Sequence record: NC_054933.1
Origin: Escherichia phage teqhad
Direction: 5' to 3' (one strand)
Length of the DNA: 64,000 nucleotides
The first letter of the stretch is position 1, and every line of letters begins with the position of its first letter. Position numbers and translations under genes: made by a program. Shown here in pieces: positions 15,174 to 43,907 of the stretch. Below the pieces are notes generated by a model. It made no database searches and had not been told where the DNA came from. It saw only the letters and a list, made by a program, of their open reading frames with translations.

Positions 15174-15644
15174 TTAATCATGTTTCCACACCCCATCGGT
15201 ATTTGACCAAAGTCGCTGATTATCTGATCCTCGCCACAGCTTTTTAGTCGGAAGATTTTTCTCATACTTCCCATCAATAATAACATCAACATATTTAAGC
15301 ATTTCTAGTTGTTTAATATCTTCAAACTTATATCCTGTCCACAACCAAATGCTTTTATTGGGATAAAGATTTTTAATAGTTTGAACCACAGAGTGAATCA
15401 CGTCTCTGTTATCAGGATAAAGAGGGTCACCTCCGGTTATAGTCAATCCTTCTATATAATCATTATTCAAACATTCAATTAATTGTTCTAGTGTTTCACC
15501 AGTGAATGGAACACCATTTCTAGCATTCCATGTTGATTTATTATAACACCCTTCGCATTTATGCAAACAACCTGTAACGAAAAGAACGACCCTGCATCCA
15601 GGGCCATTCACAAAATCACAGGGATAAAATCTATCGTAATTCAT
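15174..15644 (-). CDS. nrdG: anaerobic ribonucleotide reductase activase (radical SAM)
   Basis: 156 aa; CLHKCEGC (CX3CX2C) cluster motif; directly downstream of nrdD. Confidence 0.9.
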   Translation of the reverse strand: MNYDRFYPCDFVNGPGCRVVLFVTGCLHKCEGCYNKSTWNARNGVPFTGETLEQLIECLNNDYIEGLTITGGDPLYPDNRDVIHSVVQTIKNLYPNKSIWLWTGYKFEDIKQLEMLKYVDVIIDGKYEKNLPTKKLWRGSDNQRLWSNTDGVWKHD

Positions 15645-17458
15645 TGGTGTTTAACCCTATGCATGATTTCTTTATTTTTACCGAGATTAAATCCGCGTTC
15701 GTTCGGATTTCCCAAATAGCCGCATGTTCTTCTTATTGTGTTCATCTTTTTAGGATCAGTTTCTCCACAAATAGAACAAACAAATCCGTTTTCAGTAGGA
15801 GTCATTTCATGGGTACTTCCGCATGTAAAACACTTATCTACTGGCATATTAACACCAAAATAATCTAAATGCTGTGCAGCATAATCCCACACGGCCTCAA
15901 GACCTTTTAAGTTATTTTTCATATCAGGAAGTTCAACATAAGAAATGTGACCGCCGGTCGCAATGAAATGATACGGCGCTTCACGAGAAATCTTTTCAAA
16001 CGGAGTAATATTTTCTTCTACTGAAACATGGAAACTGTTGGTGTACCAACCTTTATCGGTAACATCCTTTACACTTCCATATTTTTCGGTATCAAGTTTA
16101 CAGAAGCGATAACAAAGGTTTTCAGCAGGAGTAGAATACAAGCTAAAAGCAAAACCAGTTCTTTCAGTCCACTGCTTAAGACGAGCATTCATTTTAGTTA
16201 AAATTTCTTGTCCAATATCACGACCGACAAGAATATTCAATTCGTGAATACCAATGTATCCTAAGGACACTGAACTTCTACCGTTTTTAAATAACTCAAT
16301 TATATCATCATCAGGTTTAAGACGAACCCCGAATGCACCTTCTTGGTAAAGAATAGGAGCAACAGTCGCTTTAACTCCTTTTAAGGAACTAATTCTACAC
16401 ATCAAAGCTTCAAAACATAAATCCATTCGCTCATTGAACAATTCGATAAATTTCTGTTCATTGAACTGTGTTCCAATATAAGAATCTAACGCGATACGAG
16501 GAAGATTCAGTGTTACAACACCGAGATTATTACGTCCATCAAGAATTTCATTACCAGTCGAATCTTTCCATACGCTCAAGAAACTACGGCAGCCCATTGG
16601 AGAAACAGGAACAGATGAACCAGTGATATCTTTATTGTTCTTAGCTGAAATAATATCAGGATACATTCTTTTGCTTGCGCACTCTAGAGCAAGCTGTTTA
16701 ATATCATAGTTCGGATCGTCTTTATAAAGATTAACACCTTCTTCAACAAACATAACAAGCTTAGGGAAAATAGGAGTTATCCCATCACGACCAAGACCTT
16801 TAATACGATTTTTCAGAATTGCTTTCTGAATCATTCGTTCAGTCCAGTCAGTTCCTGTACCAAATGTAATTGTTACAAAAGGTGTTTGTCCGTTTGAACT
16901 AAAGAGAGTATTTACTTCATATTCATAAGCTTGGAATGCATCGTATACATCTTTTTCTGTTTTAGATTGAGCATAATTCAACGCATCAGCGATTTGCCAT
17001 TTTTCTGCATCCTCAATATGTTTTGCATAGGTGCGTTTAACATAAGGAGAAAGTACTTTATCTACATTCGCAAAAGTCGTTCCGCCGTATTGGTGAGAAG
17101 CAACTTGCGCAGTAATTTGCGCCATAATTGCAGTAGCAACTCCAATTGATTTAGGAGTTTCAATCTGTGCATTACCTAGCTTAAATCCGTTCTCAAGCAT
17201 TCCTTTTAAATCTACTAAACAACAATTAGTAAATGGAAGAGCAGGGGAATAATCAATATCGTGGAAATGGATAATTCCGCTTTCATGCGCTTTCATAATA
17301 AAAGACGGGACCATATTTTTGGCAATGTGTTTAGACACAATACCAGCCATAAGGTCCCGTTGAGTTGGAAAAACACGAGAATCTTTATTAGCATTCTCGT
17401 TCAAAAGGTCTTTATTAGTTTTATGAATCAATCCTTCAATTTCTTTTTCAATTGTCAT
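15641..17458 (-). CDS. nrdD: anaerobic ribonucleoside-triphosphate reductase, uninterrupted
   Basis: 605 aa; C-terminal glycyl radical motif RRTCGYLG and Zn ribbon CFTCGS...CSICG; single continuous ORF. Confidence 0.92.
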   Translation of the reverse strand: MTIEKEIEGLIHKTNKDLLNENANKDSRVFPTQRDLMAGIVSKHIAKNMVPSFIMKAHESGIIHFHDIDYSPALPFTNCCLVDLKGMLENGFKLGNAQIETPKSIGVATAIMAQITAQVASHQYGGTTFANVDKVLSPYVKRTYAKHIEDAEKWQIADALNYAQSKTEKDVYDAFQAYEYEVNTLFSSNGQTPFVTITFGTGTDWTERMIQKAILKNRIKGLGRDGITPIFPKLVMFVEEGVNLYKDDPNYDIKQLALECASKRMYPDIISAKNNKDITGSSVPVSPMGCRSFLSVWKDSTGNEILDGRNNLGVVTLNLPRIALDSYIGTQFNEQKFIELFNERMDLCFEALMCRISSLKGVKATVAPILYQEGAFGVRLKPDDDIIELFKNGRSSVSLGYIGIHELNILVGRDIGQEILTKMNARLKQWTERTGFAFSLYSTPAENLCYRFCKLDTEKYGSVKDVTDKGWYTNSFHVSVEENITPFEKISREAPYHFIATGGHISYVELPDMKNNLKGLEAVWDYAAQHLDYFGVNMPVDKCFTCGSTHEMTPTENGFVCSICGETDPKKMNTIRRTCGYLGNPNERGFNLGKNKEIMHRVKHQ

Positions 17459-33859: not shown

Positions 33860-34397
33860 TTACTATTTCCAAAAGTTTATTATTTTTAAGGTAATTAGCC
33901 TTTTCTAGGACTTCAGAAGCATATTTAGAACCTGCTTTAACATTCCATCCCGAATTATAAGAGGATATTGCTTTTCTTATATCGCCCTTATGTATATTTA
34001 ACCAATAAGAAAGTTCAATGTACGCCCAGGAAGCTGAATTGGACCGTTTATTCAACATTCTTTTTATTTCAGCATCGGTCATATTATAACCAAGTTCCTT
34101 AACTCTTGCTCGCATAGTAGGCAAATAATTTTGGAACATTCCATAAGCGTGATGCTTTGGTTTAGATTTTAAATTAACTCCGCCAGAGCTTTCTTGCCAT
34201 AAAATAGCAGCCATTATATGACCCAATCCGCTCTTGTGGATATTTTTGTGTGTTTTATATTTTCCATCCTTAGAAAATTGTTCCCCGAATTGATACGCGT
34301 AACGCATGTTATCGAGTTGGACATTACTGAAAGTATGCTCGGAGCTATGTGCCATCATTGAAATGGCCAATAGACCAGCGAGTAGTGCTTTTCTCAT
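33852..34397 (-). CDS. secreted lytic-transglycosylase-like (SLT-domain) protein
   Basis: 181 aa; signal peptide MRKALLAGLLAISMMAHS; ILWQESSGG...YGMFQ resembles the SLT catalytic ES...GLMQ motif. Confidence 0.55.
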   Translation of the reverse strand: MRKALLAGLLAISMMAHSSEHTFSNVQLDNMRYAYQFGEQFSKDGKYKTHKNIHKSGLGHIMAAILWQESSGGVNLKSKPKHHAYGMFQNYLPTMRARVKELGYNMTDAEIKRMLNKRSNSASWAYIELSYWLNIHKGDIRKAISSYNSGWNVKAGSKYASEVLEKANYLKNNKLLEIVND

Positions 34398-34404
34398 GCT
34401 TACC

Positions 34405-34866
34405 TCATTGAGTTTTAATTACTGCTTTAGAAGCCTTTCCTGGTAAACGACGACTGTTGATAATTGCCATCCTGCATTGAAGTGACGGGTCTTTGAACTT
34501 CTCATTAGGCTTACAAACCGTAAATCCAAGCCAAAGATTTCCATCTGTGATTTCTAAACGTCCAGGACGATATTCAACCCCATCAATAAAATCCTCGTCA
34601 ATGTCAGGACGCGGAGGCATACTCAGGAATTCATTAACTTCTAAAACATGGTCTTTTATTTTATGGAATAATTCAAAAACATATGTCTCATCAATCTCCC
34701 GTTGAATTGCACGATCAAGAAGATGTTGAGAATATTTTAGATGAAACGATGAGACTCCTGCTGCTTTTGATGCCTCACGAATCTCATTGTTAATTTGACG
34801 AAACTCCGACTCAAAGTGACGACGAAGCTTATTTCGACGGATAAAAACTTCTGTATTGATAGTCAT
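34405..34866 (-). CDS. regB: RegB endoribonuclease
   Basis: 153 aa, MTINTEVFIRRNKLRRHFESEFRQINNEIREASK... recognised as T4 RegB. Confidence 0.9.
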   Translation of the reverse strand: MTINTEVFIRRNKLRRHFESEFRQINNEIREASKAAGVSSFHLKYSQHLLDRAIQREIDETYVFELFHKIKDHVLEVNEFLSMPPRPDIDEDFIDGVEYRPGRLEITDGNLWLGFTVCKPNEKFKDPSLQCRMAIINSRRLPGKASKAVIKTQ

Positions 34867-34925
34867 GTTGTTCTCCTCTTAACTGATAGAAAAATTATAC
34901 CACAGTCAAGAGGAAAAGTAAACAG

Positions 34926-35246
34926 TTATTCTTTAAATCTAATCAATTTATTCATAGACTTTGAAACTTCTGCACGAACCTCATGTAAGTTTTTAAGCTG
35001 TTCAAGACGCTGCTCATAGTAAGCAATTTCATCTTCTTCGAGACAGTCCTGTGAATCTTCTTTAAGATAGCGTGCATAGTCCTGGAAAGCTTTACGGACT
35101 ACTTCCTGGAAGTCATCAAGACTTTGAATTTTCTTAGGAGCGGCAGATACACGACGAGGGGCAGTATAATACTCATAACCAAACCCTGCACTTAATTGAG
35201 CCATTATTATTTTTCCTCTGGTTGGAACACTGCACGACAAGCCCAC
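34926..35246 (-). CDS. hypothetical early protein (likely starts at [13 protein letters not shown])
   Basis: 106-aa track ORF. Confidence 0.45.
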
Positions 35247-35506
35247 ATACTGGCTTCTTTGAGTTTCGTTTTAGCAATAGTTAACTGATCGAGGCTTTCG
35301 GCATAATTCTTCGCGAATTCACAATCTTCACAATTATCTAGTGCTTCCCAGAATTCATCATACAAAGCATCAAAGATAAGTCCTAAACGAACTTCAGCGT
35401 CTTTGATAGCATTCACTTTACCGATTTTCTCTTCAGTATGTGGTTTATAACCCTTAATATCTTCAATCATATTTGACTTCCTCACCAGTACATAAATCAT
35501 ATTCAA
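35207..35506 (-). CDS. hypothetical early protein (likely starts at [10 protein letters not shown])
   Basis: 99-aa track ORF. Confidence 0.45.
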
Positions 35507-35684
35507 CTAAACGAATAGGTTCATGAATGCCATATCCCTGAACAGAAATTTCTGTCGTAGGATAAATTCCACTAATATCACCCATATTCCACGCTTCATT
35601 AAATTGCTGTTCGCCTGAATTACTAAACCATTCTGCGAAAGCATTTAGCACATCTTTAGAACCTTCAATAATTATCTTTGCCAT
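35463..35684 (-). CDS. hypothetical small protein
   Basis: 73-aa ORF. Confidence 0.45.
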   Translation of the reverse strand: MAKIIIEGSKDVLNAFAEWFSNSGEQQFNEAWNMGDISGIYPTTEISVQGYGIHEPIRLVEYDLCTGEEVKYD

Positions 35685-36046
35685 TACAAACTCTCGGTAA
35701 AGGTACGAGCGATAACGTCGCGCTGCTGTTCCGGAGTCAGAGAGTTAAAGCGAACTGCATAACCGGATACACGGATGGTCAGCTGCGGATATTTTTCCGG
35801 ATGCTTAACTGCATCTTCCAGAGTTTCACGACGCAGAACGTTAACGTTCAGGTGTTGACCACCTTCAATTTTAACTGTAGGCTGTGGCTCAATTTCAATT
35901 TCACGGGCATGCAAACCGTAGAAAATTTCTGGGTCTACAAAAGAGTCCTCTTTAAAGGTTTTAGAGACAATAATTCGTGCTTGAATACCATCTTCAAAAT
36001 AAATAGTACCTTTATGTGTGCCTTCAAGAATTTGATATGCTTTCAT
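35684..36046 (-). CDS. autonomous glycyl-radical cofactor (GrcA/YfiD-like)
   Basis: 120 aa; C-terminal [60 protein letters not shown] carries the RVSGYAVRF glycyl-radical motif. Confidence 0.85.
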
Positions 36047-36053
36047 ATAAACC

Positions 36054-36380
36054 TCAATTAGAAAATAAATTTATCCAAGATTGTTCTTTAATTAAAAATG
36101 GCTCAGAATCATATGCCATTAAACTTTGGGTGATTAGTCCTTTAAAAGGTCCATCAATAAATTCCATGGTAAAATATGGAATTTTATTCATTAACTGTGC
36201 GTTAGGAGCAGTGCACAAAACTCTGCATCCTTTGAATACACCTTTTTGTAATTTGTATTGCTTGGGATAAAATTCGCTTAAAATGTTGTTATTTGCCAAA
36301 ATTTCAAAATGATTTACCAATTTATTTTTAATAGTTTTTGGCGAAAAATAGAGATATTCGAAAAGCTGTGTGTCTGTCAT
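36054..36380 (-). CDS. hypothetical protein (from [12 protein letters not shown])
   Basis: About 108 aa. Confidence 0.45.
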
Positions 36381-36967
36381 TATTGCATTCCGATTACGAA
36401 AAACTGTGGACGAGTAATACCACCAATGCAACATTTACTATTACAGCAGTAGTGTACAGTGTCAATATGGACGCTATAAATCTTATCCATATCAGGAGAT
36501 TTGACAGGCTCATCAATTATATACAAAATTCGCGAAAGCGATAAACCTCTGAACTTGCTTCCTTTATTACCAATAAAACTGCGTACAGAATCAGTAAATA
36601 AACGAAAACGTATATCATCATTAGAATAACGCGAAAATTCCTTTTTAATGTTATTTGCAGAAATTTTAGCGTAAGCTGAAGTATTAGAAAGAACAATAAC
36701 TGTTCCGCCATCATACAGCCAATTAGCAGCAAAGTTAGTCACAGCAATTGATTTACCAGATTGACGTCCACCATCTATACGAAGTGTGCAGTACTGTTTA
36801 AGTAATTCTTCAAATGGCGGGATATATTCGTTTTTACAAATTTCTTCTACTCTAGCATCAGAATGGTGTGTAAAAGCATTCATCAGGGATAGATAAGGAC
36901 CAGTTAAAAATGTTCTCATTTTATTCTCTCTAAATTTGGGCCATTCCATGGCGCATGAATTGTCCAT
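36380..36967 (-). CDS. P-loop protein (start probably at MRTFLTGPYL near 36919)
   Basis: Walker A GGRQSGKS and Walker-B-like ILYIIDE. Confidence 0.5.
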   Translation of the reverse strand: MDNSCAMEWPKFRENKMRTFLTGPYLSLMNAFTHHSDARVEEICKNEYIPPFEELLKQYCTLRIDGGRQSGKSIAVTNFAANWLYDGGTVIVLSNTSAYAKISANNIKKEFSRYSNDDIRFRLFTDSVRSFIGNKGSKFRGLSLSRILYIIDEPVKSPDMDKIYSVHIDTVHYCCNSKCCIGGITRPQFFVIGMQ

Positions 36968-37060
36968 TTCTGTATTTACCCATTACCGCACTCAGGCTCG
37001 ACCTTATTACAGGTTGGCGGGAATCCCTCATAGAATCATGAGGTCCAGGCTGTTCCCATA

Positions 37061-37534
37061 TTATTTGAACGATTTAACGTACTGAATAGAACCTTTACTA
37101 TTTACAAAGGCAATTTTACCATTTTTATTATACATGGTAGCAGTACGTTGATAACCATAAGTTTGTTTACCAGATTGATAACCAACTAATGCGAAATTAT
37201 CTTCGCCCATTTTATTCTGTTTAGCGCGAATGCGTTCATGACCATGTGCCATAAGAACCTTAGCATCACCGGTTGCAATGGATCTACGAGTTTTTTCATC
37301 TTCAACTGTATTAACAAAGTCGTCAAATGAATCAAATTTAGCATGAGATTTATTATACAGTTTTCCATCTACTGCATAATTATATCCCTGTACATCCATC
37401 TCAACTTCTGTACCATCATCCAATACAGCAGTGATTTTTTGACCTTTTTTAAATTTCAAAAGATCAGTAAAAGATTCAGCAATAATTTGAGAATTAATAG
37501 CTGCTTCAGTGATAAATTCTTGATATGTTTTCAT
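37061..37534 (-). CDS. internal head protein (IP) with capsid-targeting sequence
   Basis: 157 aa; N-terminus MKTYQEFITEA is the T4-type CTS cleaved by prohead protease. Confidence 0.75.
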   Translation of the reverse strand: MKTYQEFITEAAINSQIIAESFTDLLKFKKGQKITAVLDDGTEVEMDVQGYNYAVDGKLYNKSHAKFDSFDDFVNTVEDEKTRRSIATGDAKVLMAHGHERIRAKQNKMGEDNFALVGYQSGKQTYGYQRTATMYNKNGKIAFVNSKGSIQYVKSFK

Positions 37535-37543
37535 ATGTTTCCT

Positions 37544-37960
37544 TTAAATGTAAATATTTTTACCGTAATACTTATACCAATGTGGTTTCATTAAAATTTT
37601 TTCATCAAGTCGTTGTTGACTCAATTTAATAGCTGATTTGCATGGATTATAATCATTTTTCCATTCTACTGGAATATCGCTGATGTCAGGAACTTCAGTA
37701 TCTTTTATACTGAACCCTCGTTTTAAGCATTCCGTTATAATGTCTAATTGACGCTTTCGCAAAAATTCTAACTTATCGTAAAAGAACGTAACATGGCCAG
37801 AACCTAAAATAAACTCGGAAGATATTTTAAAATCTTTAACGCGCTTACCATTTGCCACATGCTTACGAACTATACCAAAAACACGTGGCAATTCACGATA
37901 TTCTGCAATTAAATGCTGATCAGTAAGTTCAGATACTAAAGTCAAATTAATACGAGTCAT
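37544..37960 (-). CDS. denV: endonuclease V (pyrimidine-dimer DNA glycosylase)
   Basis: 138 aa; [12 protein letters not shown]...[10 protein letters not shown]...; diverged from T4 denV. Confidence 0.88.
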
Positions 37961-38019
37961 TTTATCCCTCCAAATAACTGTGAATATACTATCACAATTC
38001 TAGGAGAAAGTAAACAACT

Positions 38020-38988
<969 letters not shown>

Positions 38989-43728: not shown

Positions 43729-43803
43729 TGGCGGACGTGATAGGATTCGAACCTATAACCAATCGCTTAACAGGCGATCGCTCTGCCATTGAGCTACACA
43801 TCC
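43729..43803 (-). tRNA. tRNA-Asn (anticodon GUU)
   Basis: Manual fold: acceptor GGAUGUG/CACGUCC, anticodon stem AUCGC/GCGAU, loop CUGUUAA, T-arm AUAGG-UUCGAAU-CCUAU, CCA encoded. Confidence 0.7.
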
Positions 43804-43807
43804 AAAT

Positions 43808-43894
43808 TGGTGGGGAGTGGTGGAGTCGAACCACCCGAGTCGCAATGACAATGGATTTACAGTCCACACCGCTACCTCTACGGGATAACTCCCC
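43808..43894 (-). tRNA. tRNA-Tyr (anticodon GUA), long variable arm
   Basis: Manual fold: acceptor GGGGAGU/ACUCCCC, anticodon stem GUGGA/UCCAU, loop CUGUAAA, T-arm GGUGG-UUCGACU-CCACC, CCA encoded. Confidence 0.65.
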
Positions 43895-43907
43895 TTAATT
43901 CTTAATT

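Follow-up and report, generated by a model that had tools for sequence, protein, structure and literature searches.

The DNA analyzed here, called the window below, is a stretch of 64,000 nucleotides from the genome of Escherichia phage teqhad (NC_054933.1), a Tequatrovirus. The ORF under study is gene vs.6, known in T4 as Y06I or GRCA_BPT4, and encodes the phage autonomous glycyl radical cofactor (Table 1). At the DNA level the gene is 100% identical to its counterpart in Escherichia phage teqhal and 98.9% identical to vs.6 of T4, and the window and T4 proteins (P13316, NP_049730) agree at 119/120 residues. The sole change is R74H, with His74 in the T4 reference and Arg in the window protein, E. 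coli GrcA and other phages. The gene order vs.7-vs.6-vs.5, running from denV to regB, is the same in the window, T4 and teqhal, and the window and T4 genes also share their length and a 3' tract identical to host DNA (see below). The T4 reference gives vs.6, in the regB-denV interval, the annotation “autonomous glycyl radical cofactor GrcA,” and the exact window protein is found on record in 187 contigs under the name “autonomous glycyl radical cofactor.” The match to PHROG 1209 is full length (residues 1-120 on profile positions 1-121, 210.5 bits). What the initial annotation had described as a resemblance to T4 Y06I is in fact orthology, given the nucleotide and protein identities and the shared position between regB and denV. 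We take P13316 (GRCA_BPT4) to be the protein called Y06I, because T4 has no other GrcA-like ORF and because Y06I is the older UniProt name of this entry. The gene and its function have been known since 2001, and both UniProt and RefSeq name it.

Table 1. Position of vs.6, its parts and neighbors, and the anaerobic ribonucleotide reductase genes in the window.
Feature	Position	Strand	Remarks
nrdG, radical-SAM activase of NrdD	15174..15644	-	Pfam Fer4_12 (166.7 bits) and Radical_SAM
nrdD, anaerobic ribonucleotide reductase	15641..17458	-	Pfam NRDD (573 bits) and Gly_radical; own motif RRTCGYLG
vs.5-like ORF, downstream of vs.6	35463..35684	-	73 aa; start overlaps vs.6 stop; PHROG 1986
vs.6 CDS, Y06I/GRCA_BPT4 ortholog, autonomous glycyl radical cofactor	35684..36046	-	120 aa; ATG-to-TAA ORF
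Final 13 nt of vs.6, CGAGAGTTTGTAA, phage-type and not host-type	35684..35696	-	4 grcA mismatches, GAGAG run, TAATG
Host-derived tract, vs.6 nt 179-350, encoding aa 60-117	35697..35868	-	172/172 nt shared with E. coli grcA nt 200-371 (allele with T at nt 240)
RVSGYAVRF glycyl-radical motif, aa 92-100	35747..35773	-	Gly95 codon GGT at 35762-35764
5' half of vs.6, phage-type, aa 1-59/60; an old and AT-rich GrcA N-terminal region that has diverged	35869..36046	-	48% nt identity to grcA; hhalign
Putative Shine-Dalgarno of vs.6, GAGG	36052..36055	-	sequence reading; 5 nt 5' of ATG, overlaps vs.7 TGA stop
vs.7-like ORF, upstream of vs.6	36054..36434	-	PHROG 2049

The genes vs.7, vs.6 and vs.5 are tightly packed. 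The TAATG at the end of vs.6 joins its stop codon to the start codon of vs.5, and the purine run GAGAG in its last 13 nt is the likely ribosome-binding site of vs.5. A scan of positions 34300-38100 for promoters and terminators gave site counts no higher than the shuffled expectation and no usable signal. As promoter-like sites were not above chance, expression of vs.6 is predicted from this operon-like packing alone.

Residues 61-120 of the window protein are identical to residues 68-127 of E. coli K-12 GrcA at all 60 positions, slightly more than the ~58 host-identical C-terminal residues of the initial annotation. The identical block ends in ...TFTESL. The same annotation had placed the protein in the GrcA/YfiD type of glycyl-radical proteins, and domain and structure searches agree. 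Pfam Gly_radical was detected at residues 61-101 (66.8 bits for a cut-off of 22.2), with no other Pfam domain. The top match among solved structures was 6OWR, the NMR structure named “Autonomous glycyl radical cofactor” (E 8.6e-42, residues 22-120), followed by pyruvate formate-lyase (PFL) 1CM5, residues 697-759 of which align with residues 58-120 of the phage protein (E 5e-26). In the alignments with E. coli GrcA, 6OWR and 1CM5, Gly95 falls on Gly102 of GrcA and Gly734 of PFL, and the size of the 120-aa product is that of a small stand-alone glycyl-radical domain protein (~14 kDa). The phage protein therefore shares with E. coli GrcA (YfiD; 6OWR; TIGR04365/IPR011140) the stand-alone ~14 kDa form, the C-terminal 60 residues and the radical glycine in RVSGYAV. 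It differs in being 7 aa shorter and in its N-terminal 59 residues, which are only ~30% identical and encoded by AT-rich, phage-type codons. Their settings also differ, E. coli grcA lying between ung and eamB and vs.6 in an early-region gene cluster of a lytic phage. The NCBIfam equivalog model for GrcA (TIGR04365) aligns with residues 20-120 and scores 153.3 bits, below its cut-off of 170 and below the 234 of E. coli GrcA, because the N-terminus of vs.6 has diverged. The T4 ortholog carries the GrcA name in RefSeq and UniProt despite the sub-cut-off score of the window protein.

Identity with a full-length PflB or TdcE was considered and rejected. Only residues 58-120 align with PFL (697-759), the ~760-aa barrel and Cys418/Cys419 are missing, and TIGR01255 gives 88.9 bits against a cut-off of 994. 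Compared with the glycyl radical domain of PflB (1CM5/1H16) and TdcE, vs.6 matches the radical loop and the C-terminal helix that are removed by oxygen cleavage; of the 759 residues of PflB it equals the last ~63 only, without the catalytic barrel or Cys418/419. Many phage records label vs.6 homologs “pyruvate formate-lyase” or “2-ketobutyrate formate-lyase.” As vs.6 is not a full-length formate-lyase, these names are over-calls.

The initial annotation had also regarded the N-terminal half as unrelated to GrcA. This is correct for the nucleotides, since the 5' halves of vs.6 and grcA are only ~48% identical and BLASTN of vs.6 upstream of nt 179 found no match in E. coli genomes, but it does not hold for the protein. 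When a profile of nine phage N-termini was compared by hhalign with a profile of 25 bacterial GrcA N-termini, using the N-halves alone, phage residues 22-60 aligned with GrcA residues 28-67 with 92% probability (E 6.3e-7). The BLASTP, TIGR04365 and 6OWR alignments all reach back to residues 20-22 as well, and the first ~21 residues could not be aligned to GrcA by profile. On these profile comparisons, the N-terminal half is a GrcA N-terminus that has diverged, and vs.6 is a GrcA homolog along its length rather than a foreign ORF joined to a GrcA domain.

The nucleotide alignment with grcA proposed in the initial annotation was then informative for the other half of the gene. The run of 172 nt listed in Table 1 is identical to an E. 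coli grcA allele at 172/172 positions and Gly95 is present, which bears out the earlier suggestion that the C-terminal module is of host origin. Over the slightly longer segment of vs.6 nt 179-363 (grcA nt 200-384), identity was 97.3-97.8% in 5426/5426 complete E. coli genomes. Position 240 of E. coli grcA is polymorphic (C/T), and the perfect run is obtained with the T allele, carried for example by strain SK1144. With this allele, all four of the remaining mismatches lie within the final 13 nt of vs.6. The GC content of the tract is 49.4%, as against 34.8% in the window overall and likewise in the 5' half of vs.6, which places the tract in the top 0.8% among 172-nt windows. GC at third codon positions (GC3) is 44% in the 3' half and tract and 22% in the 5' half. 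In a megablast search of the whole 64 kb against E. coli genomes, the vs.6 tract was the sole chromosomal match. The donor of the tract is Escherichia grcA, since the grcA genes of 80 other bacterial species gave at most 91% for the next-best genus, and pflB and tdcE share only 76-80% nucleotide identity with it.

The two ends of the tract both fall within the vs.6 coding region. The 5' end lies where the conserved domain begins, and no phage-type homology anchor is visible on that side. At the 3' end, an ancestral phage form, (A/T)GAGAGTCTATAA, is found in RB16, Matisse and MM02, while the E. coli form is TGAAAGCCTGTAA. Fine-scale mosaicism is seen in the final 13 nt, which are not the same in T4, the window and Mosigvirus RPN187; in T4 the tract extends 6 nt nearer to the stop codon than in the window (TGAAAG versus CGAGAG).

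To place these observations in the family, vs.6 homologs were extracted from 15 named phages. The two-part 120-aa architecture was found in Straboviridae of E. coli, Klebsiella, Cronobacter, Morganella and Aeromonas and also in T5-like Demerecviridae. The homologs of other phage genera often begin with MKAYQ..., and their C-terminal domain is near-invariant. Earlier work had reported vs.6 in 6/6 T4-like genomes (Nolan et al. 2006, PMC1524935). In RB16, Cronobacter phage Dev_CS701 and Enterobacter phage CYPEBC003, all 60 C-terminal residues are those of E. coli GrcA, and the 3' halves of RB16-type genes differ from E. coli grcA by synonymous changes at 29/62 codons, with 83% nucleotide identity. 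As judged from these codon comparisons, purifying selection on the 60-aa domain is very strong in every lineage, but it does not hold the DNA fixed. Amino-acid identity alone therefore cannot show capture, because RB16-type phages encode the same 60 residues at 83% nucleotide identity. Near-perfect DNA identity, on the other hand, marks sequence recently derived from the host, because the identical 60 residues can be encoded with 29/62 synonymous differences.

The same two-part architecture as in the window's vs.6 is seen in RB16/Pseudotevenvirus, Slopekvirus, Krischvirus, Jiaodavirus, Aeromonas phages and T5-like Demerecviridae (PHROG 1209), but there, Jiaodavirus excepted, the 3' halves have phage-like codons and are only 70-83% identical to any sampled bacterial grcA. 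IMG/VR contigs of T5-like, Pasteurellaceae-like and jumbo phages likewise gave 70-83% to any of the 80 bacterial grcA genes. One 19-kb IMG/VR contig (L128) was 91% identical to Yersinia grcA. The wide distribution of the architecture and the homology of the N-halves lead us to regard vs.6 as an old resident, full-length phage homolog of grcA.

Taken together, vs.6 is very probably a phage spare part for PFL, an old grcA homolog whose 3' half has recently been overwritten by host grcA. Phages of the T4 type break down the DNA of their host and recombine very actively. From the sequence patterns, the whole gene would be an old phage homolog of grcA, and in the Tevenvirinae infecting E. coli its 3' half would have been recently replaced by homologous recombination (gene conversion) with host grcA, fragments of which may have served as the exchange partner. 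The last ~13 nt may have stayed phage-type because the putative ribosome-binding site and the start overlap of vs.5 lie there.

A different origin would be a recent illegitimate capture, in which the 3' module of host grcA was fused to an unrelated phage ORF to give a chimeric gene. The lack of nucleotide similarity upstream of nt 179, the sharp step from ~48% to 100% identity and the step in GC and GC3 at the same position are all what a fusion would leave behind. Against it stands the homology of the two N-halves by hhalign, with TIGR04365 and 6OWR aligning from residues 20-22, and the two-part protein of distant phage genera, with its phage-like codons and 3' halves at 70-83% to sampled grcA. 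Because those distant genera have the gene with old 3' halves, it long predates the host-identical tract. The tract also stops 13 nt short of the stop codon and carries no host flanking DNA with it, which points to exchange between homologs and not to end-joining. We consider such a capture quite unlikely. The host-module capture of the initial annotation thus stands for the 3' half, which is host-derived; what happened is better described as the overwriting of an old phage homolog than as fusion to a foreign N-terminus.

One could also argue that there was no recent transfer, and that purifying selection for fit to PflB and PflA, together with codon preference, froze a 3' half acquired long ago. 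Indeed, the 60-aa domain hardly varies in any of the phage lineages examined, even where the DNA has diverged. However, the RB16-type genes retain 60/60 residues with synonymous differences at 29/62 codons, and a perfect run of 172 nt at a background identity of 83% has a probability of ~1e-14. In addition, the tract is identical across phages whose flanks differ by 14-23%, and the patches reciprocally match the host genus of their own phages, E. coli or K. pneumoniae, as described below. A frozen ancient sequence is extremely improbable on this evidence.

The match to the host genus was seen in the Klebsiella Jiaodaviruses KP17, Nispero and AM_K5, where the 3' half of vs.6 has a GC3 of 57-62%. 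KP17 and Nispero, the best of the three, share 97.1% identity with K. pneumoniae grcA, including a perfect run of 104 nt, and only 86-87% with E. coli grcA. The pattern is reversed in the Tequatrovirus and Mosigvirus phages of E. coli, which are nearer to E. coli than to K. pneumoniae grcA; the two host genes themselves are 88% identical. At the scale of the database, identity of at least 95% was reached with the E. coli allele by 495 phage records and with the K. pneumoniae allele by 106. Among the matches listed, all those above 94% to the K. pneumoniae allele were Klebsiella phages, with E. coli phages at 85-88%. In both E. coli-type and Klebsiella-type patches, the mismatches to host grcA concentrate in the last ~13 nt. 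Since the Jiaodavirus patch is K. pneumoniae-like and that of Tequatrovirus and Mosigvirus is E. coli-like, host patching has happened at least twice. It is not universal, as the 3' half of Salmonella grcA used as a query found no phage above 84% identity.

Within the E. coli group, the 5' halves of Mosigvirus RPN187 and contig L105 share 89-90% identity with that of the window gene, and their tracts match the host allele at every position; as to the flanks, in L105, the one for which flanks were compared, these are 77-86% identical to the window. In other isolates, between 1 and 11 private changes are present in the tract, independent of the divergence of their 5' halves. Patch decay is thus graded, spanning 0 to 11 changes, without tracking 5'-half divergence. 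Two apparent variants were discarded. In Mosigvirus, BLAST alignments reaching grcA nt 155 suggested a tract starting further 5', but the extra 45 nt match at only 25/45 positions and other phages at 21-25/45, so that the extension is incidental. Nami and MM02 looked like mosaics of ancestral and host sequence, but their differences are mostly private point changes, as expected of older, decaying patches.

Host DNA is present in phage lysates, and one may ask if host reads were mis-assembled into the phage genomes, or if the patch was gained during laboratory propagation. T4 has been grown for decades on E. coli B, and a BL21 derivative is 97.8% identical, like SK1144, implying the T allele. 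Yet the tract is found in frame and with the same junctions in 495 independent phage records, it is also present in a metagenome-derived IMG/VR contig (L103), and a Klebsiella patch lies at the equivalent place in Klebsiella phages. Moreover, teqhal, the closest isolate, was isolated on K-12, in which nt 240 of grcA is C, the other allele. The many independent genomes, the metagenome contig and the mismatch with the K-12 allele lead us to exclude an assembly or laboratory artefact, whose probability is practically negligible.

A further step would be that the glycyl-radical half of vs.6 is repeatedly re-synchronized with the grcA of the current host by homologous gene conversion during lytic infection, which would give the spare part an exact fit to PflB and PflA of that host at all times. 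We put this forward tentatively and give it slightly less than an even chance.

Regarding function, both Y06I and YfiD are given their glycyl radical by the PFL activase (PFL-AE) and restore the activity of oxygen-cleaved PFL, according to Wagner et al. (2001, BBRC 285:456) as cited in PMC8683613 and PMC12338860. The role of Y06I as a spare part for PFL put forward in the initial annotation is therefore the published function of the T4 protein, as relayed by PMC8683613. In YfiD, residues 61-127 duplicate PFL residues 693-759, and residues 1-60 are disordered, promote binding to cleaved PFL and increase activation ~4-fold (PMC8683613, PMC12338860).

By this precedent, oxygen would cleave host PflB at the Gly734 radical and the C-terminal domain of the phage protein, which is residue for residue that of host GrcA and mimics PFL residues ~697-759, would bind the damaged enzyme. 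By analogy with T4 Y06I (119/120 residues identical), the host activase PflA would then install the radical on Gly95 of the phage protein. With PFL activity restored, fermentative production of acetyl-CoA, ATP and formate could continue in the infected cell in the micro-aerobic gut. The diverged N-terminal half probably acts like the disordered GrcA N-terminus in cleaved-PFL binding and activation. The physiological benefit may be an extra supply of the spare part early in infection, so that fermentation persists when an anaerobic cell meets oxygen.

An early supply of this kind fits the presence of nrdD and nrdG, which the initial annotation had also reported and which are indeed encoded in the window. 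The same two genes raise the possibility that the vs.6 protein is instead a spare glycyl-radical domain for the phage NrdD, activated by NrdG, and does not act on PFL. In Aeromonas phage Aswh_1, the vs.6 homolog immediately follows and overlaps nrdG, and a role in nucleotide metabolism was speculated upon previously (Nolan et al. 2006, PMC1524935). However, vs.6 lies about 18 kb from nrdDG in the window, and BLASTP of the vs.6 protein against the window's own NrdD gave no significant similarity (E 2.6). The NrdD motif RRTCGYLG is of the RxxCGY type and differs from RVSGYAVRF, whereas the vs.6 domain is identical to that of host GrcA at 60/60 positions and matches PFL 697-759. As T4 Y06I is also reported to reconstitute PFL with PFL-AE (in the account given by PMC8683613), a role as an NrdD spare part is very unlikely, and the function in PFL repair remains the favored one.

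T4 Y06I/vs.6 is a textbook example of a spare part that a phage encodes for an oxygen-sensitive enzyme of its host, and the gene itself is nothing new. For annotators, the correction is that homology to GrcA spans the entire protein, which is neither a formate-lyase nor the product of fusion to an unrelated N-terminus. We regard the host-tracking patch as a modest evolutionary curiosity. A full-text search found no published account of the vs.6 nucleotide mosaic or of host tracking, although an earlier mention is possible, as older key papers lie outside such a search. Here, a strictly lytic phage of 35% GC that destroys host DNA carries one stretch of 172 nt that is exactly that of its host, and in Klebsiella phages the corresponding stretch agrees with that of Klebsiella. 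Homologous exchange from host to phage can thus hold a molecular mimic matched to its target, and the vs.6 tract offers a simple experimental system to measure host-phage exchange. If conversion is ongoing, the tract would be a sequence marker of the recent host genus, and vs.6 would be a rare documented case of gene conversion from a host to a virulent phage that upholds a molecular mimic.

The reference T4 genome (NC_000866) carries a private nonsynonymous change in vs.6, the gene for the autonomous glycyl radical cofactor Y06I, in which codon 74 reads CAT instead of CGT (R74H). This change falls within the tract that is otherwise identical to host grcA. Therefore, the domain of the biochemically studied T4 Y06I is not identical to that of host GrcA, whereas the domain of the window protein is. 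The corresponding codon and the other features discussed here are listed in the table.

Coordinates of features in the window and in two comparison phages
Sequence	Feature	Position
Window	vs.6 codon 74	35825-35827
Window	e - denV - internal-head-protein-like ORF(s) - vs.8-like	36380-38514
Window	Internal-head-protein-like ORF	37061-37534
Window	Highest-GC 172-nt stretch	~43396
Window	tRNA cluster	~43743-43900
Morganella phage vB_Mm5 (L089)	vs.6 homolog region	1-982
Aeromonas phage Aswh_1 (L098)	nrdG/vs.6 homolog region	1-587

Host-type residues were also found in other phages. Klebsiella phage Matisse (Slopekvirus) encodes Klebsiella-type residues (ETLLDAVEHPEKY) and RB16 encodes E. coli-type ones, with a DNA identity to the host genes of only 81-83% in both cases. 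The presence of host-type residues on such diverged DNA suggests either very old patches or co-adaptation to the host at the protein level. A GrcA-like protein is also encoded by a 19-kb viral contig (IMGVR_UViG_2706794630_000006), and the 3' half of its gene, 91% identical to Yersinia artesiana grcA, may represent a third host-type patch. The chromosomal gene grcA itself is present on two PLSDB "plasmid" records, CP125156.1 (5.37 Mb) and LR134122.1 (568 kb), which appear to be chromosomal sequence rather than plasmids; the K. aerogenes copy among them harbors a 1-nt frameshift that is probably an assembly error.

The gene order around denV in the window differs from that of T4, where the matching region reads e - ipIII - ipII - denV - vs.8. 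Elsewhere in the window, the tRNA cluster, which lies near the stretch of highest GC content, shows 82-89% nucleotide identity to plasmid-borne tRNA-Tyr/Thr/Asn arrays. Among the 5426 E. coli genomes compared, 212 carried such matching plasmid arrays, and none had a chromosomal match to the cluster.

The vs.6 homolog of Morganella phage vB_Mm5 is annotated within a longer ORF of 217 aa; we took it as the 129-aa ORF starting at the first in-frame ATG, and it is directly followed by an HNH endonuclease gene. In the window, vs.6 and nrdG are ~20 kb apart. In Aeromonas phage Aswh_1, by contrast, the start of the vs.6 homolog overlaps the end of nrdG by 4 nt (228 versus 231), and the spare-part gene is directly linked to the activase of the anaerobic reductase.
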